In this document: positions 28,734 through 36,138 of the stretch, in pieces
Numbering within the stretch: position 1 is the stretch's first letter
How the letters are laid out: the number at the start of each line of letters is the position of its first letter
IMG/VR virus record: IMGVR_UViG_3300019784_000376
Span: 1-38,494 of that record
Strand: one strand, 5' to 3'
Origin: a virus
Lineage: Duplodnaviria > Caudoviricetes
Length of the DNA stretch: 38,494 bases
Translations under genes and position numbers: made by a program
Notes under the pieces: model-generated
Seen by the model: the letters and a program-made list of their open reading frames with translations, nothing else
Told to the model about the DNA's origin: nothing
Databases searched by the model: none

Positions 28734-29136
28734 TAAATCTTCATTCGATTTAGACTTTGGATACGGACGCAAGGGTGAGCAGTTAGTAGATGAGTTGCTT
28801 ACTGGTGGACGCACAGTAGAAGTAAAGCGTGACCGCAAGTGGGCTAAGACTAACAACCTATACATTGAAACTGAATGTTACTTCAAGAAGATTGAGGCAT
28901 GGGCTCCATCAGGATTGATGGTAACAGAAGCAGCATACTGGGCATTTGTGCTAGAAGAAAGCACATTGATTGTACCGATTGATGCACTTAAATATGCAGT
29001 AAAAGAATTCGGTAGAGAGATTGAATGTAACATACCACCTAATCTTTCTAAGGGTAAGTTAATAACTGTTGATGATTTAATGTCGGCAACACGACTATAT
29101 AAGAAAGCAAAGGCAGATGAACTGGCAACGCATTGA
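28726..29136 (+). CDS. Putative PD-(D/E)XK-type nuclease
   Basis: GEQLV...VEVKRD...NLYIE...SGL...AAYWAF. Confidence 0.55.
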   Translation: MTNKSSFDLDFGYGRKGEQLVDELLTGGRTVEVKRDRKWAKTNNLYIETECYFKKIEAWAPSGLMVTEAAYWAFVLEESTLIVPIDALKYAVKEFGREIECNIPPNLSKGKLITVDDLMSATRLYKKAKADELATH

Positions 29137-29812
29137 ACCTTGGGACTATGTCGTAGTGGCTGTAGCCTCTGAGTACCATAGGAAGTATGCTATGGTTGAG
29201 TTAGAGGATATCAAGCAATCACTATACGAATGGTTTATCGAGCACCCTAATAAGTTAGATGAGTGGGAAGCGATAGGTAAGAGAGATGCAAAGAACTTAA
29301 TCTATCGTAGCCTACGCAATCAGGCATTAGATTATTGTCAGAAGTGGAAAGCCAAGTCAGTCGGCTACGAAGTCTCTGATTTATTTTACTACGCACCTGA
29401 AGTTGTAGAGGCTATGTTGCCTGCTGTCTTGCGACATGACTTAACAATTACACCACAGTTAAATCTTGGTGGTAGTAGCACACCAACCGCACCATCTGAG
29501 GGCGGAAACTTAATGGCAATGATGATTGAAATTGACTGGGGTTACTGGAAGTTAAGCAAAGATGATAGGCGCATAATCTTTCTACGCCATGCTGAGTCAA
29601 TGGATTACAAGGAGATATCTAATACACTATCCTTGGGTTCAGAAGATGCAGCACGCATGAGAACTAAGCGTGCGCTTAATCGTTTGATTAGTAAAATAGG
29701 TGGGCATAAGCCCTATAGAGATGAAGACTCCACCCCTGCTGGCAAAGAGGTTGAACCAGCAGAGGCGGAATCTTTAGAGGAAGGCGACGAGCACAATAAC
29801 ACAGATGAATAG
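29117..29812 (+). CDS. RNA polymerase sigma-70-like (ECF-type) factor
   Basis: Region 2-like EDIKQ...LRNQALDY; region 4 HTH LS..DRRIIFLR...YKEIS..L...AAR.R..RALNRL. Confidence 0.75.
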   Translation: MNWQRIEPWDYVVVAVASEYHRKYAMVELEDIKQSLYEWFIEHPNKLDEWEAIGKRDAKNLIYRSLRNQALDYCQKWKAKSVGYEVSDLFYYAPEVVEAMLPAVLRHDLTITPQLNLGGSSTPTAPSEGGNLMAMMIEIDWGYWKLSKDDRRIIFLRHAESMDYKEISNTLSLGSEDAARMRTKRALNRLISKIGGHKPYRDEDSTPAGKEVEPAEAESLEEGDEHNNTDE

Positions 29813-30913: not shown

Positions 30914-31305
30914 CAGTGCCAACCTTTCTGTTTAAAGTGTAGCCATGCTTCGCATGGTGTTCCGTATCTGTAGTAAATATAATCCAACCCACGCTCTATC
31001 TGTCGTGGTGCTGGTGTTGCAGGGTCAAGCCCCAACAGTTGAGGTATACCACCAGCATGCTTCCCCATAACCCTGATACTATTCCAAGCATCAGGATTCC
31101 ATGCTGATTCCTTACCCCATAATCTGTTGAGGCATGACCACTGTTCATCTTGCCACTCGCTGAGTTTGTCTCTAGCGTATGCCTTGCTATCTTCCTTACT
31201 CCAAGTAACTTGCACGCCTTTGTCTGTTGTGTCCGTGCTTTGTCTTGAGTTGTCCGATACAAACCATACTACTAATACAAGTAGCAAGAAACTTATTGCT
31301 TTCAC
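30913..31305 (-). CDS. Membrane-anchored lytic transglycosylase (SLT/lysozyme-like, actinobacterial type)
   Basis: N-terminal hydrophobic anchor; KESAWNP (catalytic Glu), GIPQ, QI..GL.YI..RYG.PC.AW......GW. Confidence 0.85.
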   Translation of the reverse strand: MKAISFLLLVLVVWFVSDNSRQSTDTTDKGVQVTWSKEDSKAYARDKLSEWQDEQWSCLNRLWGKESAWNPDAWNSIRVMGKHAGGIPQLLGLDPATPAPRQIERGLDYIYYRYGTPCEAWLHFKQKGWH

Positions 31306-31574
31306 AGGCTTACCTTCTCTCTAACTTTGTTAGCAAATGCTACCGCTGTACTTCTGTACTCGCTATCGATAGGTTCACCTGCTTCTAATAGTCGCTCACC
31401 TGATAGTGTGCCACCCCAAACTCCATAGTCTATGTTGTCTGGCTTCATACCTTCTGCCTTACATTCTACCACAGCAGGACAGTAAGAGCAAATCGTTAGT
31501 GCTCGTATTGCATTGTTAACTGTGTTAGAAAACCATAGGTCAGGGTTAACGTCACCTGTACATAGACCATTCAT
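31302..31574 (-). CDS. whiB: WhiB-family Fe-S transcription factor
   Basis: Four Cys (C...PDLWF...CxxC-x5-C) and GVWGG. Confidence 0.9.
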   Translation of the reverse strand: MNGLCTGDVNPDLWFSNTVNNAIRALTICSYCPAVVECKAEGMKPDNIDYGVWGGTLSGERLLEAGEPIDSEYRSTAVAFANKVREKVSL

Positions 31575-32180: not shown

Positions 32181-33023
32181 TTAGTATAGGAATTGGCTTA
32201 GCGATTGTTTGCTTTGCCAGTTAGTGTTTGGTGTGTAACATAGACAGTCATCTATCATGATTGAACAATCAAAGCATGACTTGCACATGTTACAGTAGTA
32301 CGGGTTGTCTGTCAAGTCTGTGGCTGACTCGCAATAGGGGCAGACTTCTAAGTCTACCTCTACTTCATAGTCCCACATACCATGTTTAAGCATTGAGTAC
32401 TCACGTGGCTCGTAAGCATAAGGTTTGATTGCCATTGTGGGCTTAGGCTCTAGGTATGTTGTGCGTTTGTGGCTCTGATTAGACCACCAAATACCCTCAT
32501 TGTCCCATGAACCAGCCGACTCATTGAGTAGATACATAGGGTGCTTGGCTGCTGGGTCTACTGTTAGGATAGCAATCTTGCTACCCTTAGCCCAAGTCTC
32601 AGCCATTATCCATACGTTATCGTCATCAAGTGCAGACACACCACCAATTCTAGGTAGTGTATCCTCAGCGAAGACTCGCGTATCGCTACGCTTGTCTGAC
32701 TTGCCGATACTTATGTCAAGCACACCATTGTGTGCTAGGTAAGTACGCTCATCACCACCAACCATGAACGGGTGACAGTTCTGCTCGTTCTTAACACCAT
32801 GTGTGGCGTATCGTGCGTGCCACATGGCGTAGCCGTCTGGGAATTGCTTGCGTAATTCCAAGAAGCGTGCAATAGATTTTTTAGCAGACATGCTACGCTC
32901 GGAGATAATCCTATCGCCAGCATGTATAGCAAATCCAAATCCGTGTGGATTACTACACGCGCCAGCGTGTAAGTCTGCTTCGTTTGGTGTGGAGTTTGGC
33001 TCGCACACTATAAGTAAGCACAT
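32181..33023 (-). CDS. Class II glutamine amidotransferase (Ntn, N-terminal Cys) with a C-terminal Cys cluster
   Basis: M-CLL start, NPHGFG, HARYATHG, NCHPF, HNGV, SDT; GAGGGAG RBS before ATG 33023. Confidence 0.9.
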   Translation of the reverse strand: MCLLIVCEPNSTPNEADLHAGACSNPHGFGFAIHAGDRIISERSMSAKKSIARFLELRKQFPDGYAMWHARYATHGVKNEQNCHPFMVGGDERTYLAHNGVLDISIGKSDKRSDTRVFAEDTLPRIGGVSALDDDNVWIMAETWAKGSKIAILTVDPAAKHPMYLLNESAGSWDNEGIWWSNQSHKRTTYLEPKPTMAIKPYAYEPREYSMLKHGMWDYEVEVDLEVCPYCESATDLTDNPYYCNMCKSCFDCSIMIDDCLCYTPNTNWQSKQSLSQFLY

Positions 33024-33036
33024 GTTATCATCTCCC

Positions 33037-34320
33037 TCATGCGTTAGCAACTATCTTGTTGTTGATGTCTACTGATTGTATCTTGTCCAACCTAGAGTAC
33101 AGGTCGGGGTAGAGTCCATTGTTGGACACTACATAGTCAGCGAACCAGTCCCAAGATAATGCGCCAAGTTTGACGTCATCTAGGCGTAGGTCTCTAGTGT
33201 ATTCTACCATGGCTTGCGCTAAGTCTAGAGCACTTAGCACCCCACTTGTGTTCATTGTGCCCCTAAAGAAGCGCAATTCTATGGTGTGTGCGTTCTGAGT
33301 ATTGACCGCAGAGTATCTCTCTGAGGGTGTGAACGCGGGACTTGCTACCTTATGCTTGAGTGAGAACACAGGTCTGTCATACTCATCAAAGGTGTACACG
33401 TCATTAAACCTAGCGAACCTAGACTTACGACCTGCAAACTTCATCATGTGTGGTGCGTTGTGGTACACAAAGGCTATGAACCTATGCAAGTGTGCGCCAC
33501 TCTTAAATCCTTTGCGACTTAGGTGTATGTGTAAGCCACAGGTATCTGTATCCCATGACCTAGCACCATACTTAGTGCGCAACAATTCTATCGTATCCCA
33601 TAGTAACTTACTATTCTCTCGATACTCTTGATGAGTATGAGGGTGGGTTACAATCTCGAACCCGTTGCCAATACTTCCGTCATGCTTGAGGTATGCTATG
33701 CCGTCTAGATTACTAGAGGCGTACCTAGCACCACTATCAAGCGATTGTACCTCTGTCTCTAACTCGAAGCCTAGATACATGTTGTGCTTGCTTGTACCCT
33801 TAAACTTAGGGTTAGGCTTGCATGAGTAGTCGTGAATAGTACCGCTATTACGATACGCACGACAGCACCTATCGTTATCGTTGTCACGACAATCGCAAGA
33901 GTTATCATTGGTGAAACTCTCGTCACAATCCTCACACCAGTAACACTCTGACTCATAGCAACGCTCACAGTATGGCGTATCCTGTACATAAGTACAATCA
34001 CCTGAGTACGACTCAGAACATGAGTCGCAATAGTAACTGTAATTTTCCCAGCAATACTCACACCATGACTCGTCTCTGTCTACTGTGCGACTAGAGTCAT
34101 TGTCCATGCCGTCCTCGCAACGATTACAGTAACTAGCGCAATCATCACAGTAACTCATGACTCCAACGACTATGCGTTGTTCCATGTCTCTGACATCATC
34201 ACAATCCTCACACACAAACACACAATCTGTGCAATAAGCGTGCTCGTTCATTACTATCTCGTCCCCGTCATCTATTGTAGATGAACAGGTCGTACACTCT
34301 CTAGTGTTATCCTCGTCCAT
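33037..34320 (-). CDS. Putative amidoligase (COOH-NH2 ligase, glutamine-synthetase fold) with an N-terminal CxxC repeat array
   Basis: GFELE, DGS, FEIVTHP, CGLHIH, RYSAVN and TIELRFF motifs; about nine CxxC pairs in the first ~150 aa. Confidence 0.85.
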   Translation of the reverse strand: MDEDNTRECTTCSSTIDDGDEIVMNEHAYCTDCVFVCEDCDDVRDMEQRIVVGVMSYCDDCASYCNRCEDGMDNDSSRTVDRDESWCEYCWENYSYYCDSCSESYSGDCTYVQDTPYCERCYESECYWCEDCDESFTNDNSCDCRDNDNDRCCRAYRNSGTIHDYSCKPNPKFKGTSKHNMYLGFELETEVQSLDSGARYASSNLDGIAYLKHDGSIGNGFEIVTHPHTHQEYRENSKLLWDTIELLRTKYGARSWDTDTCGLHIHLSRKGFKSGAHLHRFIAFVYHNAPHMMKFAGRKSRFARFNDVYTFDEYDRPVFSLKHKVASPAFTPSERYSAVNTQNAHTIELRFFRGTMNTSGVLSALDLAQAMVEYTRDLRLDDVKLGALSWDWFADYVVSNNGLYPDLYSRLDKIQSVDINNKIVANA

Positions 34321-34353
34321 GTATCTCACCCCCTCTCGCTATCTTGTAGTTGT

Positions 34354-34685: not shown

Positions 34686-34784
34686 CTAACCTCTCTCACA
34701 AGGACACCATGAGCCTAGATTAAGTTTGCCACACTTAGGACAAGTCCAAAACCTATCCTTGCGTGGGTCGCTTTCACTACTCAT
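34686..34784 (-). CDS. 32 aa zinc-finger microprotein (RanBP2-like spacing, not in ORF track)
   Basis: MSSESDPRKDRFWTCPKCGKLNLGSWCPCERG; starts just downstream of promoter P4. Confidence 0.6.
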   Translation of the reverse strand: MSSESDPRKDRFWTCPKCGKLNLGSWCPCERG

Positions 34785-34795
34785 GAAGTACCCTT

Positions 34796-34824
34796 ATCTT
34801 ATCATGGCTTGACCCTGTTGTCAA
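34796..34824 (-). promoter_or_regulatory. SigA-type promoter P4
   Basis: TTGACA-17-TAAGAT with extended TG. Confidence 0.8.
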
Positions 34825-34825
34825 G

Positions 34826-34877
34826 TCGTGCCACGCTAGGGCTTGAACCTAGACCTACCCCCACAATCGGGCGTGGC
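34826..34877 (-). ncRNA. tRNA-like element: acceptor stem plus T-arm, without full D or anticodon arms
   Basis: GCCACG...CTAGG-TTCAAGC-CCTAG-CGTGGC-A. Confidence 0.55.
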
Positions 34878-34882
34878 TAATC

Positions 34883-35194
34883 TTAGTCGTTCGCGTCTAT
34901 GTGGACGCTAGGTAGCGTGGCGCGGAACTCGCGTTCGCGTTCGCTAAGTGCTAGGGCGCGTGCTAGGCGTTCCTGTTCCTGTTCGCTAAGGGTCGGTAGT
35001 ACGCGCTCAACCTTAGGCATGTTCGACTTTACGGCGTGGCGTGGGCGTGTACGGCGTACAGCCTTGCCATGTGTAGTGTCGCTCAACCGCCAACCGCGTG
35101 AGCCCAAGCGTGTGCTAGTGACTCGCACGTTAAGTGCGGTTATGCCATGAAAGTTGGTGTCTATACTATCCCGACCCGCAAGGGTCGATTTCAT
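34883..35194 (-). CDS. Hypothetical basic protein, first gene of the leftward (early) module
   Basis: 103 aa Arg-rich ORF with GAGAGG RBS downstream of promoter P3. Confidence 0.65.
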   Translation of the reverse strand: MKSTLAGRDSIDTNFHGITALNVRVTSTRLGSRGWRLSDTTHGKAVRRTRPRHAVKSNMPKVERVLPTLSEQEQERLARALALSEREREFRATLPSVHIDAND

Positions 35195-35226
35195 GCGTTG
35201 TCCTCTCTCGTTAATTTGTAAATCAT

Positions 35227-35255
35227 ACTTTACATGCTTTGTCTTACTTTGTCAA
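35227..35255 (-). promoter_or_regulatory. SigA-type promoter P3
   Basis: TTGACA-17-TAAAGT; GACAC 9 nt upstream of the -35. Confidence 0.8.
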
Positions 35256-35261
35256 ATTGTC

Positions 35262-35410
35262 GGCGTGTCGTGTTGGTAAAGGGTGAGTCGTGCAACCAAC
35301 CCCATTGGGTCTGCTACTAGTGGCAATCAAGCCACCCTTTACCATGACACTATTTAGTTTGACTAGATAAGTGACGCTCCAACCTTTGCGGGCTAGGTCT
35401 GCTTATCTTG
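35262..35410 (-). ncRNA. Candidate ~150 nt structured RNA transcribed from P2
   Basis: 12 bp perfect stem (35274-35285 with 35333-35344), an AGATAAG/CTTATCT stem, and two copies of AGCAGACC...GGTTGG. Confidence 0.5.
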
Positions 35411-35415
35411 TGAGA

Positions 35416-35444
35416 ATTGTATCAAACAAAACTCACTTTGTAAA
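35416..35444 (-). promoter_or_regulatory. SigA-type promoter P2
   Basis: TTTACA-17-TACAAT with extended TG; GACAC 20 nt upstream of the -35. Confidence 0.75.
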
Positions 35445-35519
35445 GGTTACCCACGACCTTTGGCGTGTCGTACTTTGTGACCCTTTGGGGGGTGAGCCCC
35501 CTATCCGATTACAAGGCAA

Positions 35520-35548
35520 AGACTACACGCTCACCGACCCTTTGTCAA
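35520..35548 (-). promoter_or_regulatory. SigA-type promoter P1
   Basis: TTGACA-17-TAGTCT. Confidence 0.75.
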
Positions 35549-35557
35549 GTCGAAAAC

Positions 35558-35575
35558 GTGTGATGTCTGTCACAC
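35558..35575. promoter_or_regulatory. CRP/GlxR-type binding site
   Basis: GTGTGA-TGTCTG-TCACAC, a perfect TGTGA-N6-TCACA match. Confidence 0.7.
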
Positions 35576-35580
35576 CTAGT

Positions 35581-35665
35581 CTGAGAGTTTCCTGAGAATT
35601 ACCTGAGAGATACGGGCATGGATAACCTTAGAGTTTCCTGTGAACTTCCTGAGAATTAACTGAGC
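35581..35665. repeat. Array of seven 11 bp-period direct repeats (CTGAGA core)
   Basis: Units start at 35581, 35592, 35603, 35627, 35638, 35649 and 35660. Confidence 0.85.
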
Positions 35666-36138
35666 CCCCCTTAATGGTGGACACTTGGGGGATAGTCTGT
35701 CTAAGATTAAACCTTTAATTTATAGTTAGACAAAACAAGGCATAGTGTCTACCCATCAAATAGAGACAAATACACATGGAGACAAATCAATTTGTCGACA
35801 AATCGATAAGTCGATAAGTCTATTTGACCCTAGAGTCTTTTAACTGGGGCCCCTGTACATATTATGTATCCCATTAAAATTTTCTGTTATATGGGGCCCA
35901 TATGCCCTGTGACCAGGGCTTTTATATATATCAGTGGGGCTAATAAAAATATATTCAAACTGGTTGTTCGGTTTTAGCACTTTGAACAGGTTATCTATTA
36001 TGTATAATAATACATAACGGAGTCGCTCCGTTTAAGACTCCGCGACTCTTATATATAATAATATAATATATATATTGGGATAGTTATATCCGTTTACTGA
36101 CGGGTGTTTAATGTGGGTTTAGCAGGGGGATATAACTG

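Follow-up and report, generated by a model that had tools for sequence, protein, structure and literature searches.

Conserved structured RNAs in a modular early leader of a phage clade, a candidate nut-like platform

Introduction

What kind of RNA lies in the gap between the rightward terminase gene and the leftward early genes of a phage, and what might it do there? We addressed this question in the window, the whole stretch of 38,494 nucleotides of IMG/VR record IMGVR_UViG_3300019784_000376 (Duplodnaviria; Caudoviricetes), a near-complete phage record (97%). A first-pass annotation of this DNA had proposed, at 35262 to 35410, a free-standing early RNA of about 150 nt with two copies of an internal motif. 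In cluster A-type actinophages, the early transcripts of highest abundance are non-coding; they are partly essential, toxic and of no known role (PMC5712189), and the locus would offer a testable role for such unexplained RNAs. The terminase of the window is 44% identical to terminases of Streptomyces Beephvirinae and the phage encodes a WhiB (PF02467 match above the cut-off), which together point to an actinobacterial host. The relatives and the RNA runs used here are of freshwater origin by record.

Results

The early leader has a common layout among relatives

Related loci were collected via the terminase (80 kept), the amidoligase gene (47), an ORF1 alignment (73) and ORF1 in metagenomes (24). 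From the 73 loci, 3 without upstream DNA were left out, as were 2 more without flank, and identical leaders were merged, leaving 60 loci, one of which is identical to the window. The element lies between the terminase gene (36139) and the gene run beginning with ORF1, and it is read from the minus strand (Table 1). The loci share one layout, consisting of a CRP-like site, P1, hairpin A, GACAC, P2, a variable slot, domain 2 (D2), P3 and ORF1. Three or four promoter-like sites were found in 44 of 57 loci, a P3-like site in 52 of the 60, and an extra promoter-like site within D2 in 29 of the 60; other promoter-like sites of the window are at 34824, 34382, 32315 and 31671.

The inverted repeat upstream of P1, which we take to be of the CRP type, recurs with the same pattern in 52 of the 57 loci with enough flank, and GACAC stands 10-26 nt 5' of the P2 -35 in 52/57. 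With these sites, the phage WhiB and a sigma-like gene, control of early transcription by host activators is possible; the WhiA motif is of the GACAC type according to an excerpt of PMC10243135. Hairpin A shows compensatory changes in its apical stem among relatives (judged by eye, uncounted) and keeps the internal loop AUCRGAUA/AAMRG.

Table 1 Features of the early leader in the window.
Feature	Position	Strand	Basis or remark
CRP-type inverted repeat, TGTGA-N6-TCACA	35559..35574	n/a	Upstream of P1; read from sequence
Promoter-like P1, TTGACA-17-TAGTCT	35520..35548	-	Predicted start ~35513; sequence
Hairpin A, first module of the leader	35475..35514	-	Fold and relatives
GACAC, candidate WhiA box	35465..35469	-	Upstream of P2
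Promoter-like P2, TTTACA-17-TACAAT, TG-extended	35416..35444	-	Predicted start ~35410
Domain 1 (D1) hairpin, accessory module	35365..35408	-	32 distinct sequences
Domain 2 (D2), ~110-nt irregular rod	35251..35363	-	Covariation, fold
rRNA-leader boxC-like 12-mer, unpaired AAUA (35354-35351), candidate NusA site	35348..35359	-	Sequence, column conservation
Promoter-like P3, TTGACA-17-TAAAGT	35227..35255	-	-35 doubles as 3' arm of the D2 basal stem
ORF1 (103 aa), N-terminal part basic and Arg-rich, helix at the C terminus, candidate N-like partner	34883..35194	-	
tRNA-like element with an acceptor-like stem of 7 bp, a T-loop-like loop and an ACGA tail	34826..34877	-	Candidate RNase P site

The predicted fold is confirmed in part and extends further

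All strings quoted in the first-pass annotation were found on the minus strand. The P2 hexamers at 35444/35416 agree with the RNA start near 35410 that it had predicted, D1 (35408-35365) folds as it had described, and the perfect 12-bp stem of D2 is present (35344-35333/35285-35274). The minus-strand fold has a minimum free energy (MFE) of -53.4 kcal/mol (z -4.30), which 0 of 200 shuffles equalled, and the plus-strand fold gave z -2.91. In line with the earlier statement that no convincing ORF is present, no minus-strand ORF of at least 40 aa overlaps 35262-35410. Rfam gave 0 gathering hits in the window, with chance miRNA-type hits only at E up to 10, and a search of 8 relatives returned only chance miRNA-type matches. 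The homologue collection proposed as a check showed that both hairpins are conserved and covary in relatives, in the early control region. The 3' boundary at 35262 was misplaced, with a basal stem carrying D2 to about 35251, into the -35 of the next promoter.

The idea of one internal motif present in two copies did not survive the comparison, in which the conserved cores of D1 and D2 differ. The pattern AGCAGACC-N-GGTTGG, picked post hoc, does occur twice in the window and in none of 100 shuffles; the single locus of the 60 with two copies is the one with a leader identical to the window, and in 8 of the 60 loci D2 alone carries AGCAGACC…GGTTGG. A scan of IMG/VR for the 14-base twin motif returned about 3100 stretches, approximately the chance number for 14 bases with 13 gap lengths. 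Type III antitoxin RNAs are tandem repeats of one pseudoknot unit. An antitoxin mimic, among the roles suggested earlier, was rejected, given the twin motif in 1/60 loci, the unlike cores of D1 and D2, and a single pseudoknot in place of D1 in 14/60. The alternative pairing said to compete with D1 exists on paper, at -2.8 versus -13.6 kcal/mol and a mean pair probability of 0.00-0.10 in the window; in 39 relatives its mean probability is 0.06-0.09, and it exceeds 0.25 in 5/39 nascent folds and 1/39 full-length folds. Because the competing pairing is weak and unconserved, a conformational switch is unlikely.

D2 is the constant core of the leader and the slot before it is accessory

D2 is the constant core of the leader, and the slot before it, which holds D1, a pseudoknot or nothing, is accessory. 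Read from the base, D2 begins with stem P0 and the AAUA loop; the 12-bp stem is separated by C·C (35331/35287) from a stem of 3 bp, and after an AYU/A loop come a helix, a 7-nt bulge AGUAGCA (35318-35312) flanked by U·G and G·U, and an apical stem-loop. Among 53 distinct sequences, 93.8% of the cells were paired and 24 of 26 pairs showed two-sided changes. This pairing level was reached by 0 of 500 shuffles, and slid controls gave 37-44%. The shuffle test is inflated by relatedness, but the sequences were aligned with plain MAFFT and up to six pair types occur. The conserved positions are the unpaired ones: C43 (53/53) and C90 (52/53) of the C·C, the AYU/A loop, the AUA (50-53/53) of the AAUA, and the 7-nt bulge AGHARMA, that is AG(U/A/C)A(G/A)(C/A)A, of which AG-A--A is kept in 52-53/53. 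Conserved G·U pairs are U57·G79 (31/37) and G65·U78 (46/53). P0, which lies outside the coordinates first proposed, also covaries (G-C 33, U-A 11 and C-G 2 of 53). The window belongs to the 7 exceptions among these, its pairing here being in a shifted register. Its MFE fold also differs from the conserved inner fold of D2 with the 7-nt bulge.

The D2 model R1 found one copy in the window, as did a search of the phage's own genome, and it gave hits in 23 of the 80 loci collected via the terminase and in 28 of 31 additional ones. All 19 exact D2-pattern matches in IMG/VR are directly upstream of an ORF1 homologue. BLASTn of D2 against GenBank phages gave no match; D2 was not found in OX376640, two MAG-binned phage contigs, Percastrophe or a 302-kb Tsukamurella record, and R1 found nothing in the genomes of L5, Refuge, Partridge, Danzina and Percastrophe.

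D1 was present in 39 of the 60 loci, missing from 21 and doubled in L316. Its AC/GU pairs, AGC bulge (35378-35376) and closing C-G are invariant in 32/32 sequences, the pairs next to this core swap U-A/C-G and A-U/C-G, and the variable apical stem ends in GNRA loops in 13/32. The conserved G·U pairs and GNRA loops indicate that the element fits a minus-strand RNA. The gap between D1 and D2 is 2 nt in the window and variable among relatives, and 15 of 16 D1-pattern hits fall within this phage family, the other being a coding-like chance hit. A covarying H-type pseudoknot replaces or joins D1 in 14 of the 60 loci, and the slot is empty in 8. It is well supported that D1 and D2 each define a new family of RNA structure within a modular early leader.

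A hairpin together with a covarying H-type pseudoknot was seen upstream of D2 in L319, L324, L325, L328, L332-L335, L312 and L339.

The base of D2 carries a boxC-like segment

The D1-D2 linker at 35359 matches the boxC-like 12-mer of rRNA leaders at 11 of 12 positions, and no other site on the two strands of the window comes within one mismatch. With at most two mismatches, the 12-mer was found in 28 of the 60 loci versus 9 of 4916 background windows, and it is kept in 17 of 29 loci without an overlapping -35; it is off by at least 3 bases in 32 of the 60. A loose linker pattern allowing one mismatch occurred 13 times in the window, against 12 expected by chance, and only the 12-mer test discriminates. 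The first half of the 12-mer sits in the covarying stem P0 (46/53, three pair types), and the AAUA is open. Secondary descriptions in excerpts of PMC2724277 and PMC6614801 present mycobacterial boxC as a NusA site, with AUA critical, held in a stem that is opened by NusA, and the excerpt of PMC6614801 places rrn boxC in an RNase III duplex. The boxC of the two host rrn records is fully paired with the trailer, whereas the AAUA of D2 is unpaired. BoxA, the NusB/NusE half, was not found directly upstream, where the window has TATCTAGTCA and rrn leaders have TTCTT(T)GAG, and is not conserved in the alignment of this phage family.

Cultured phages carry the rRNA-type motif itself. In Percastrophe, a Streptomyces phage, the equivalent genome end carries tandem TTGAC promoters together with two motif copies, and the motif also precedes 16S, by 104 and 206 nt, in records of Nonomuraea and Tsukamurella. 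A 35-nt probe with the full boxA-boxC matched 118 phage records, 105 of them of actinobacterial phages; the matches include phages of Streptomyces (96), Rhodococcus (5), Mycobacterium (2), Gordonia (2) and Nocardia (1). In the four examined in full (Percastrophe, Refuge, Partridge and Danzina), boxA-boxC follows tandem TTGAC promoters at a non-coding genome end, and no trailer partner was predicted for these boxC copies. In the L5 Pleft region the boxC-like motif was not found, and R1 gave non-significant matches to two rrn leaders (E 0.34 and 1.1). A literature search of incomplete coverage returned no description of these RNAs or of boxA-boxC in actinophage leaders; large catalogues of candidate RNAs may contain these motifs. 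Intact boxA-boxC copies were located in cultured Streptomyces, Mycobacterium and Rhodococcus phages at L367:4824-4858 (minus strand), L371:1038-1062, L372:1120-1136 and L373:686-705.

D2 co-occurs with the gene of a small basic protein, and no intrinsic terminator was found in the early run

ORF1 evolves as a coding sequence, with 1959 synonymous versus 614 nonsynonymous single-base codon differences, and its first 65 aa carry a net charge of +6 to +12. The structure model is confident in helix 71-93 only (pTM 0.27). No family match was found in Pfam, PHROGs, Atlas or profile searches (best Atlas score 0.78, below lead level), and the relatives found (329 and 20) include none that is named. 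Of 46 terminase loci with enough flank, 23 have both D2 and ORF1 and 23 have neither, with at least 4 gains or losses of the pair on the terminase tree; adjacency by itself could explain this co-occurrence. Among short-leader relatives, the first protein is near-neutral in 17/19.

The early regions of 15 loci with D2 (64.6 kb) and the early run of the window gave no intrinsic terminator, against 8 in those of 15 loci lacking D2 (60.7 kb). G exceeds C on the early strand in 13/19 windows, a skew that is not rut-like, in a scan that cannot exclude Rho sites.

A small hairpin in the first codons of ORF1 (35178-35191, minus strand) is kept in both N-terminal variants. L128 and L160 have a different structured leader of about 300 nt, roughly 820-1140 nt upstream of the terminase on the minus strand, with long-range compensatory changes, followed by a different Lys/Arg-rich ORF of 100 aa (+14).

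RNA libraries cover the leader continuously into ORF1

RNA-library contigs from two studies match the locus at 100% and modest depth (X1, 34948-35494; X2, 35116-35467), which shows presence and not level, strand or ends. Both run from ORF1 through D2 and D1 to P2 and end just short of the predicted P1 start, and the ends at 35494 and 35467 give a weak hint of a P1 leader. RNA-library cover is absent between 35495 and 36222, a stretch for which probable-DNA runs do have pieces. With no terminator found and contigs continuing from the leader into ORF1, the free-standing RNA of about 150 nt proposed at first gives way to a leader.

Gaps in RNA cover at 34815-34947 (X1) and 34778-34930 (X2) span the tRNA-like element downstream, although a gap proves nothing. 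In its MFE fold the 7-bp stem forms and the three-way junction does not, and ARAGORN found no tRNA or tmRNA. A T-loop-like string lies 40-200 nt downstream of D2 in 34 of the 60 loci. Elements with a tRNA-like acceptor stem and T-loop were also seen in other early leaders, namely L374 (L5, ~51190-51130) and L371, before its last promoter; the L5 element lies where the 3' end of the Pleft RNA has been reported, and both are candidate RNase P sites.

Discussion

A nut-like platform, a decoy and other readings

The element is structured and probably protein-binding, as had been suggested, and an antitermination-type role and a decoy, both named at the outset, are the leading pair of explanations. 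We favour, at a probability of about 0.4, the reading of D1 and D2 as a cis-acting nut-like platform for NusA and an N-like phage protein. D1 and D2, flanked by tandem promoter-like sites and preceding the leftward genes, would act in cis: host NusA would be drawn to the boxC-like segment at the D2 base, where AAUA is exposed, the small and Arg-rich product of ORF1 would dock on the bulged helices, and host RNA polymerase from P1/P2 would gain processivity, as with lambda N-nut and rrn leaders. We infer the steps themselves, that is NusA binding, ORF1 binding, an effect on elongation and transcription from P1/P2, of which the RNA contigs give a weak hint. In its favour we count the covariation and the conserved unpaired bases, the boxC-like 12-mer with the rRNA-type copies in cultured phages, and the basic charge of ORF1, a trait shared by the first ORF of L128 and L160 behind their different long leader but not by that of 17/19 short-leader relatives. 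Against this platform stand the unconserved boxA, the 32/60 loci in which the 12-mer is off by 3 or more bases, the lack of the motif in L5, the non-significant R1 matches to rrn leaders, the lack of terminators found for read-through, a D2-ORF1 linkage that is expected of adjacent DNA, and an ORF1 without known-family homology. In addition, most genes need no read-through from P1/P2, because P3, the D2-internal and further promoter-like sites lie downstream. The missing terminators and the promoters bypassing D2 favour the decoy, in which processing of the leader, probably through RNase P cleavage at the tRNA-like element, would yield stable trans-acting RNAs that titrate host Nus factors or defence proteins and so aid takeover, as we also propose for the L5 Pleft RNAs. 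This account is the main rival and somewhat less probable than the platform. It fits the multiple promoter-like sites and the swappable modules (D1, pseudoknot, neither or doubled D1), but the contigs are continuous into ORF1 with no discrete species, in data where ends and level are invisible, and R1 finds nothing in L5 or four other cultured phages, so the link to L5 is positional only.

The remaining explanations each account for part of the data. Hairpin A and D1 begin within 3 nt of predicted starts, the start of the internal promoter falls at the base of the D2 apical helix in 14/23 loci, and D2 is a long rod with a boxC-like stretch, as would suit 5'-end stabilisers or RNase III-type processing signals of the early mRNA, in keeping with the RNase III duplex of rrn boxC in the excerpt of PMC6614801; stabilisers do not need invariant bulges, however, and host boxC is fully trailer-paired where the AAUA of D2 is open, and we consider this unlikely. 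Equally improbable is that D2 serves as an operator bound by ORF1 for autoregulation, or as a ribonucleoprotein with another job such as DNA entry or replication priming: the joint presence and absence of D2 and ORF1 and the 19 matches upstream of ORF1 homologues speak for it, but P3 stands between D2 and the ORF1 ribosome-binding site in 52/60 loci, so that P3 transcripts escape D2. The earlier suggestion of a riboswitch or conformational switch found little backing and is very improbable. The conserved internal loops could make a ligand pocket and the alternative pairing exists on paper, but that pairing is improbable both in the window and in the 39 relatives, no U5 tract follows D2 in 60/60 loci, a constant link to the ribosome-binding site is missing and D1 is dispensable. 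Finally, promoter elements overlap the stems, as they would in DNA-level inverted repeats of promoters or operators, but the conserved G·U pairs and GNRA loops are strand-specific RNA features that make a DNA-level reading scarcely credible.

Comparison with known systems

The leader nut site of actinobacterial rrn operons (boxA-boxC; NusB/E and NusA) shares with the locus a boxC-like 12-mer with an exposed AUA, partly in a stem, shortly 3' of strong tandem promoters. The phage leader differs in having no boxA and no trailer duplex, and in the fusion to a 110-nt bulged rod without counterpart in the two rrn loci searched; membership in the rrn nut class was rejected on the boxA result. The likeness of ORF1 to lambda N is physical and positional, drawn against the N-nut features as we take them to be. 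As with lambda N-nut (nut as in an excerpt of PMC2724277), a structured RNA follows the early promoters and precedes a basic first product of about 100 aa that is largely of low confidence; in contrast to it, there is no N homology, no boxB hairpin with a GNRA pentaloop, no boxA and no downstream terminator found.

HK022 putL/putR, one of the models invoked in the first-pass annotation, resembles the leader in its bulged stem-loops at the start of early transcripts and in a -10-like hexamer inside the element, the latter present in about half of the loci here; the excerpt of PMC9378689 states that put binds the beta' zinc-binding domain and antiterminates without proteins. Put consists of two abutting stems acting together, whereas D2 is a single long rod, and no sequence similarity was seen. 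Put membership was rejected, since D1 is missing in 21/60 D2 loci and the gap is variable. Riboswitch membership was likewise rejected, with no conserved expression platform (no U tract in 60/60, P3 intervening in 52/60) and no Rfam match. The apical loops of D1 and D2 vary without complementarity, and a phi29 pRNA-like role was rejected. Likenesses to the hairpin ribozyme, T-box, sarcin-ricin and guanidine-II motifs were rejected by eye, as the required bases, which we presume from their reference features, are not conserved.

A positional parallel is with the Pleft non-coding RNAs of cluster A mycobacteriophages L5, D29 and StarStuff (PMC5712189) and with Rhodococcus phage WC1 (PMC10986025). 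In both settings an array of tandem TTGACA promoters at a non-coding genome end precedes a leftward early operon, with a T-loop-like element downstream; the difference is that no D2 match was found in L5 or four other cultured actinophages. A broader interpretation is doubtful: at the first-transcribed end of actinophages there would be a new RNA-scaffolded antitermination, in which cultured Streptomyces, Rhodococcus and Mycobacterium phages copy the host boxA-boxC and the freshwater clade swaps boxA for a new 110-nt bulged RNA bound by an N-like protein of its own, with an interchangeable decoy slot (D1 or pseudoknot) in front. The locus itself gives structures defined by covariation, a handful of invariant bases, NusA as a candidate target in the host and ORF1 as a candidate partner from the phage, and the idea can be tested in culturable phages of Streptomyces and M. 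smegmatis that carry rRNA-type boxA-boxC copies. If it is right, actinophages, among them those of abundant lake Actinobacteria, a host taken from the WhiB alone, would share an early strategy of antitermination or Nus-factor titration.

Other features of the region

Several further elements were observed around the leader. Adjoining genes for an amidoligase (PF12224) and a class II glutamine amidotransferase lie in the early run (32181-34329, minus strand), and the sigma-like gene is at 29117-29812. WhiA-type GACAC and CRP-type sites accompany early promoters at 35465-35469, 35559-35574 and 31302-31574. An inverted repeat surrounds the P2 -10 (35407-35436, minus strand), in which the spacer pairs with the start region, with compensatory changes in relatives. 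Upstream of P1, short direct repeats (CTGAGA-rich and GACAAAT) and an inverted repeat at 35581-35665 and 35761-35832 are perhaps genome-end or packaging signals, and an AT-rich inverted repeat directly 5' of the terminase start (36003-36065) is kept in relatives.
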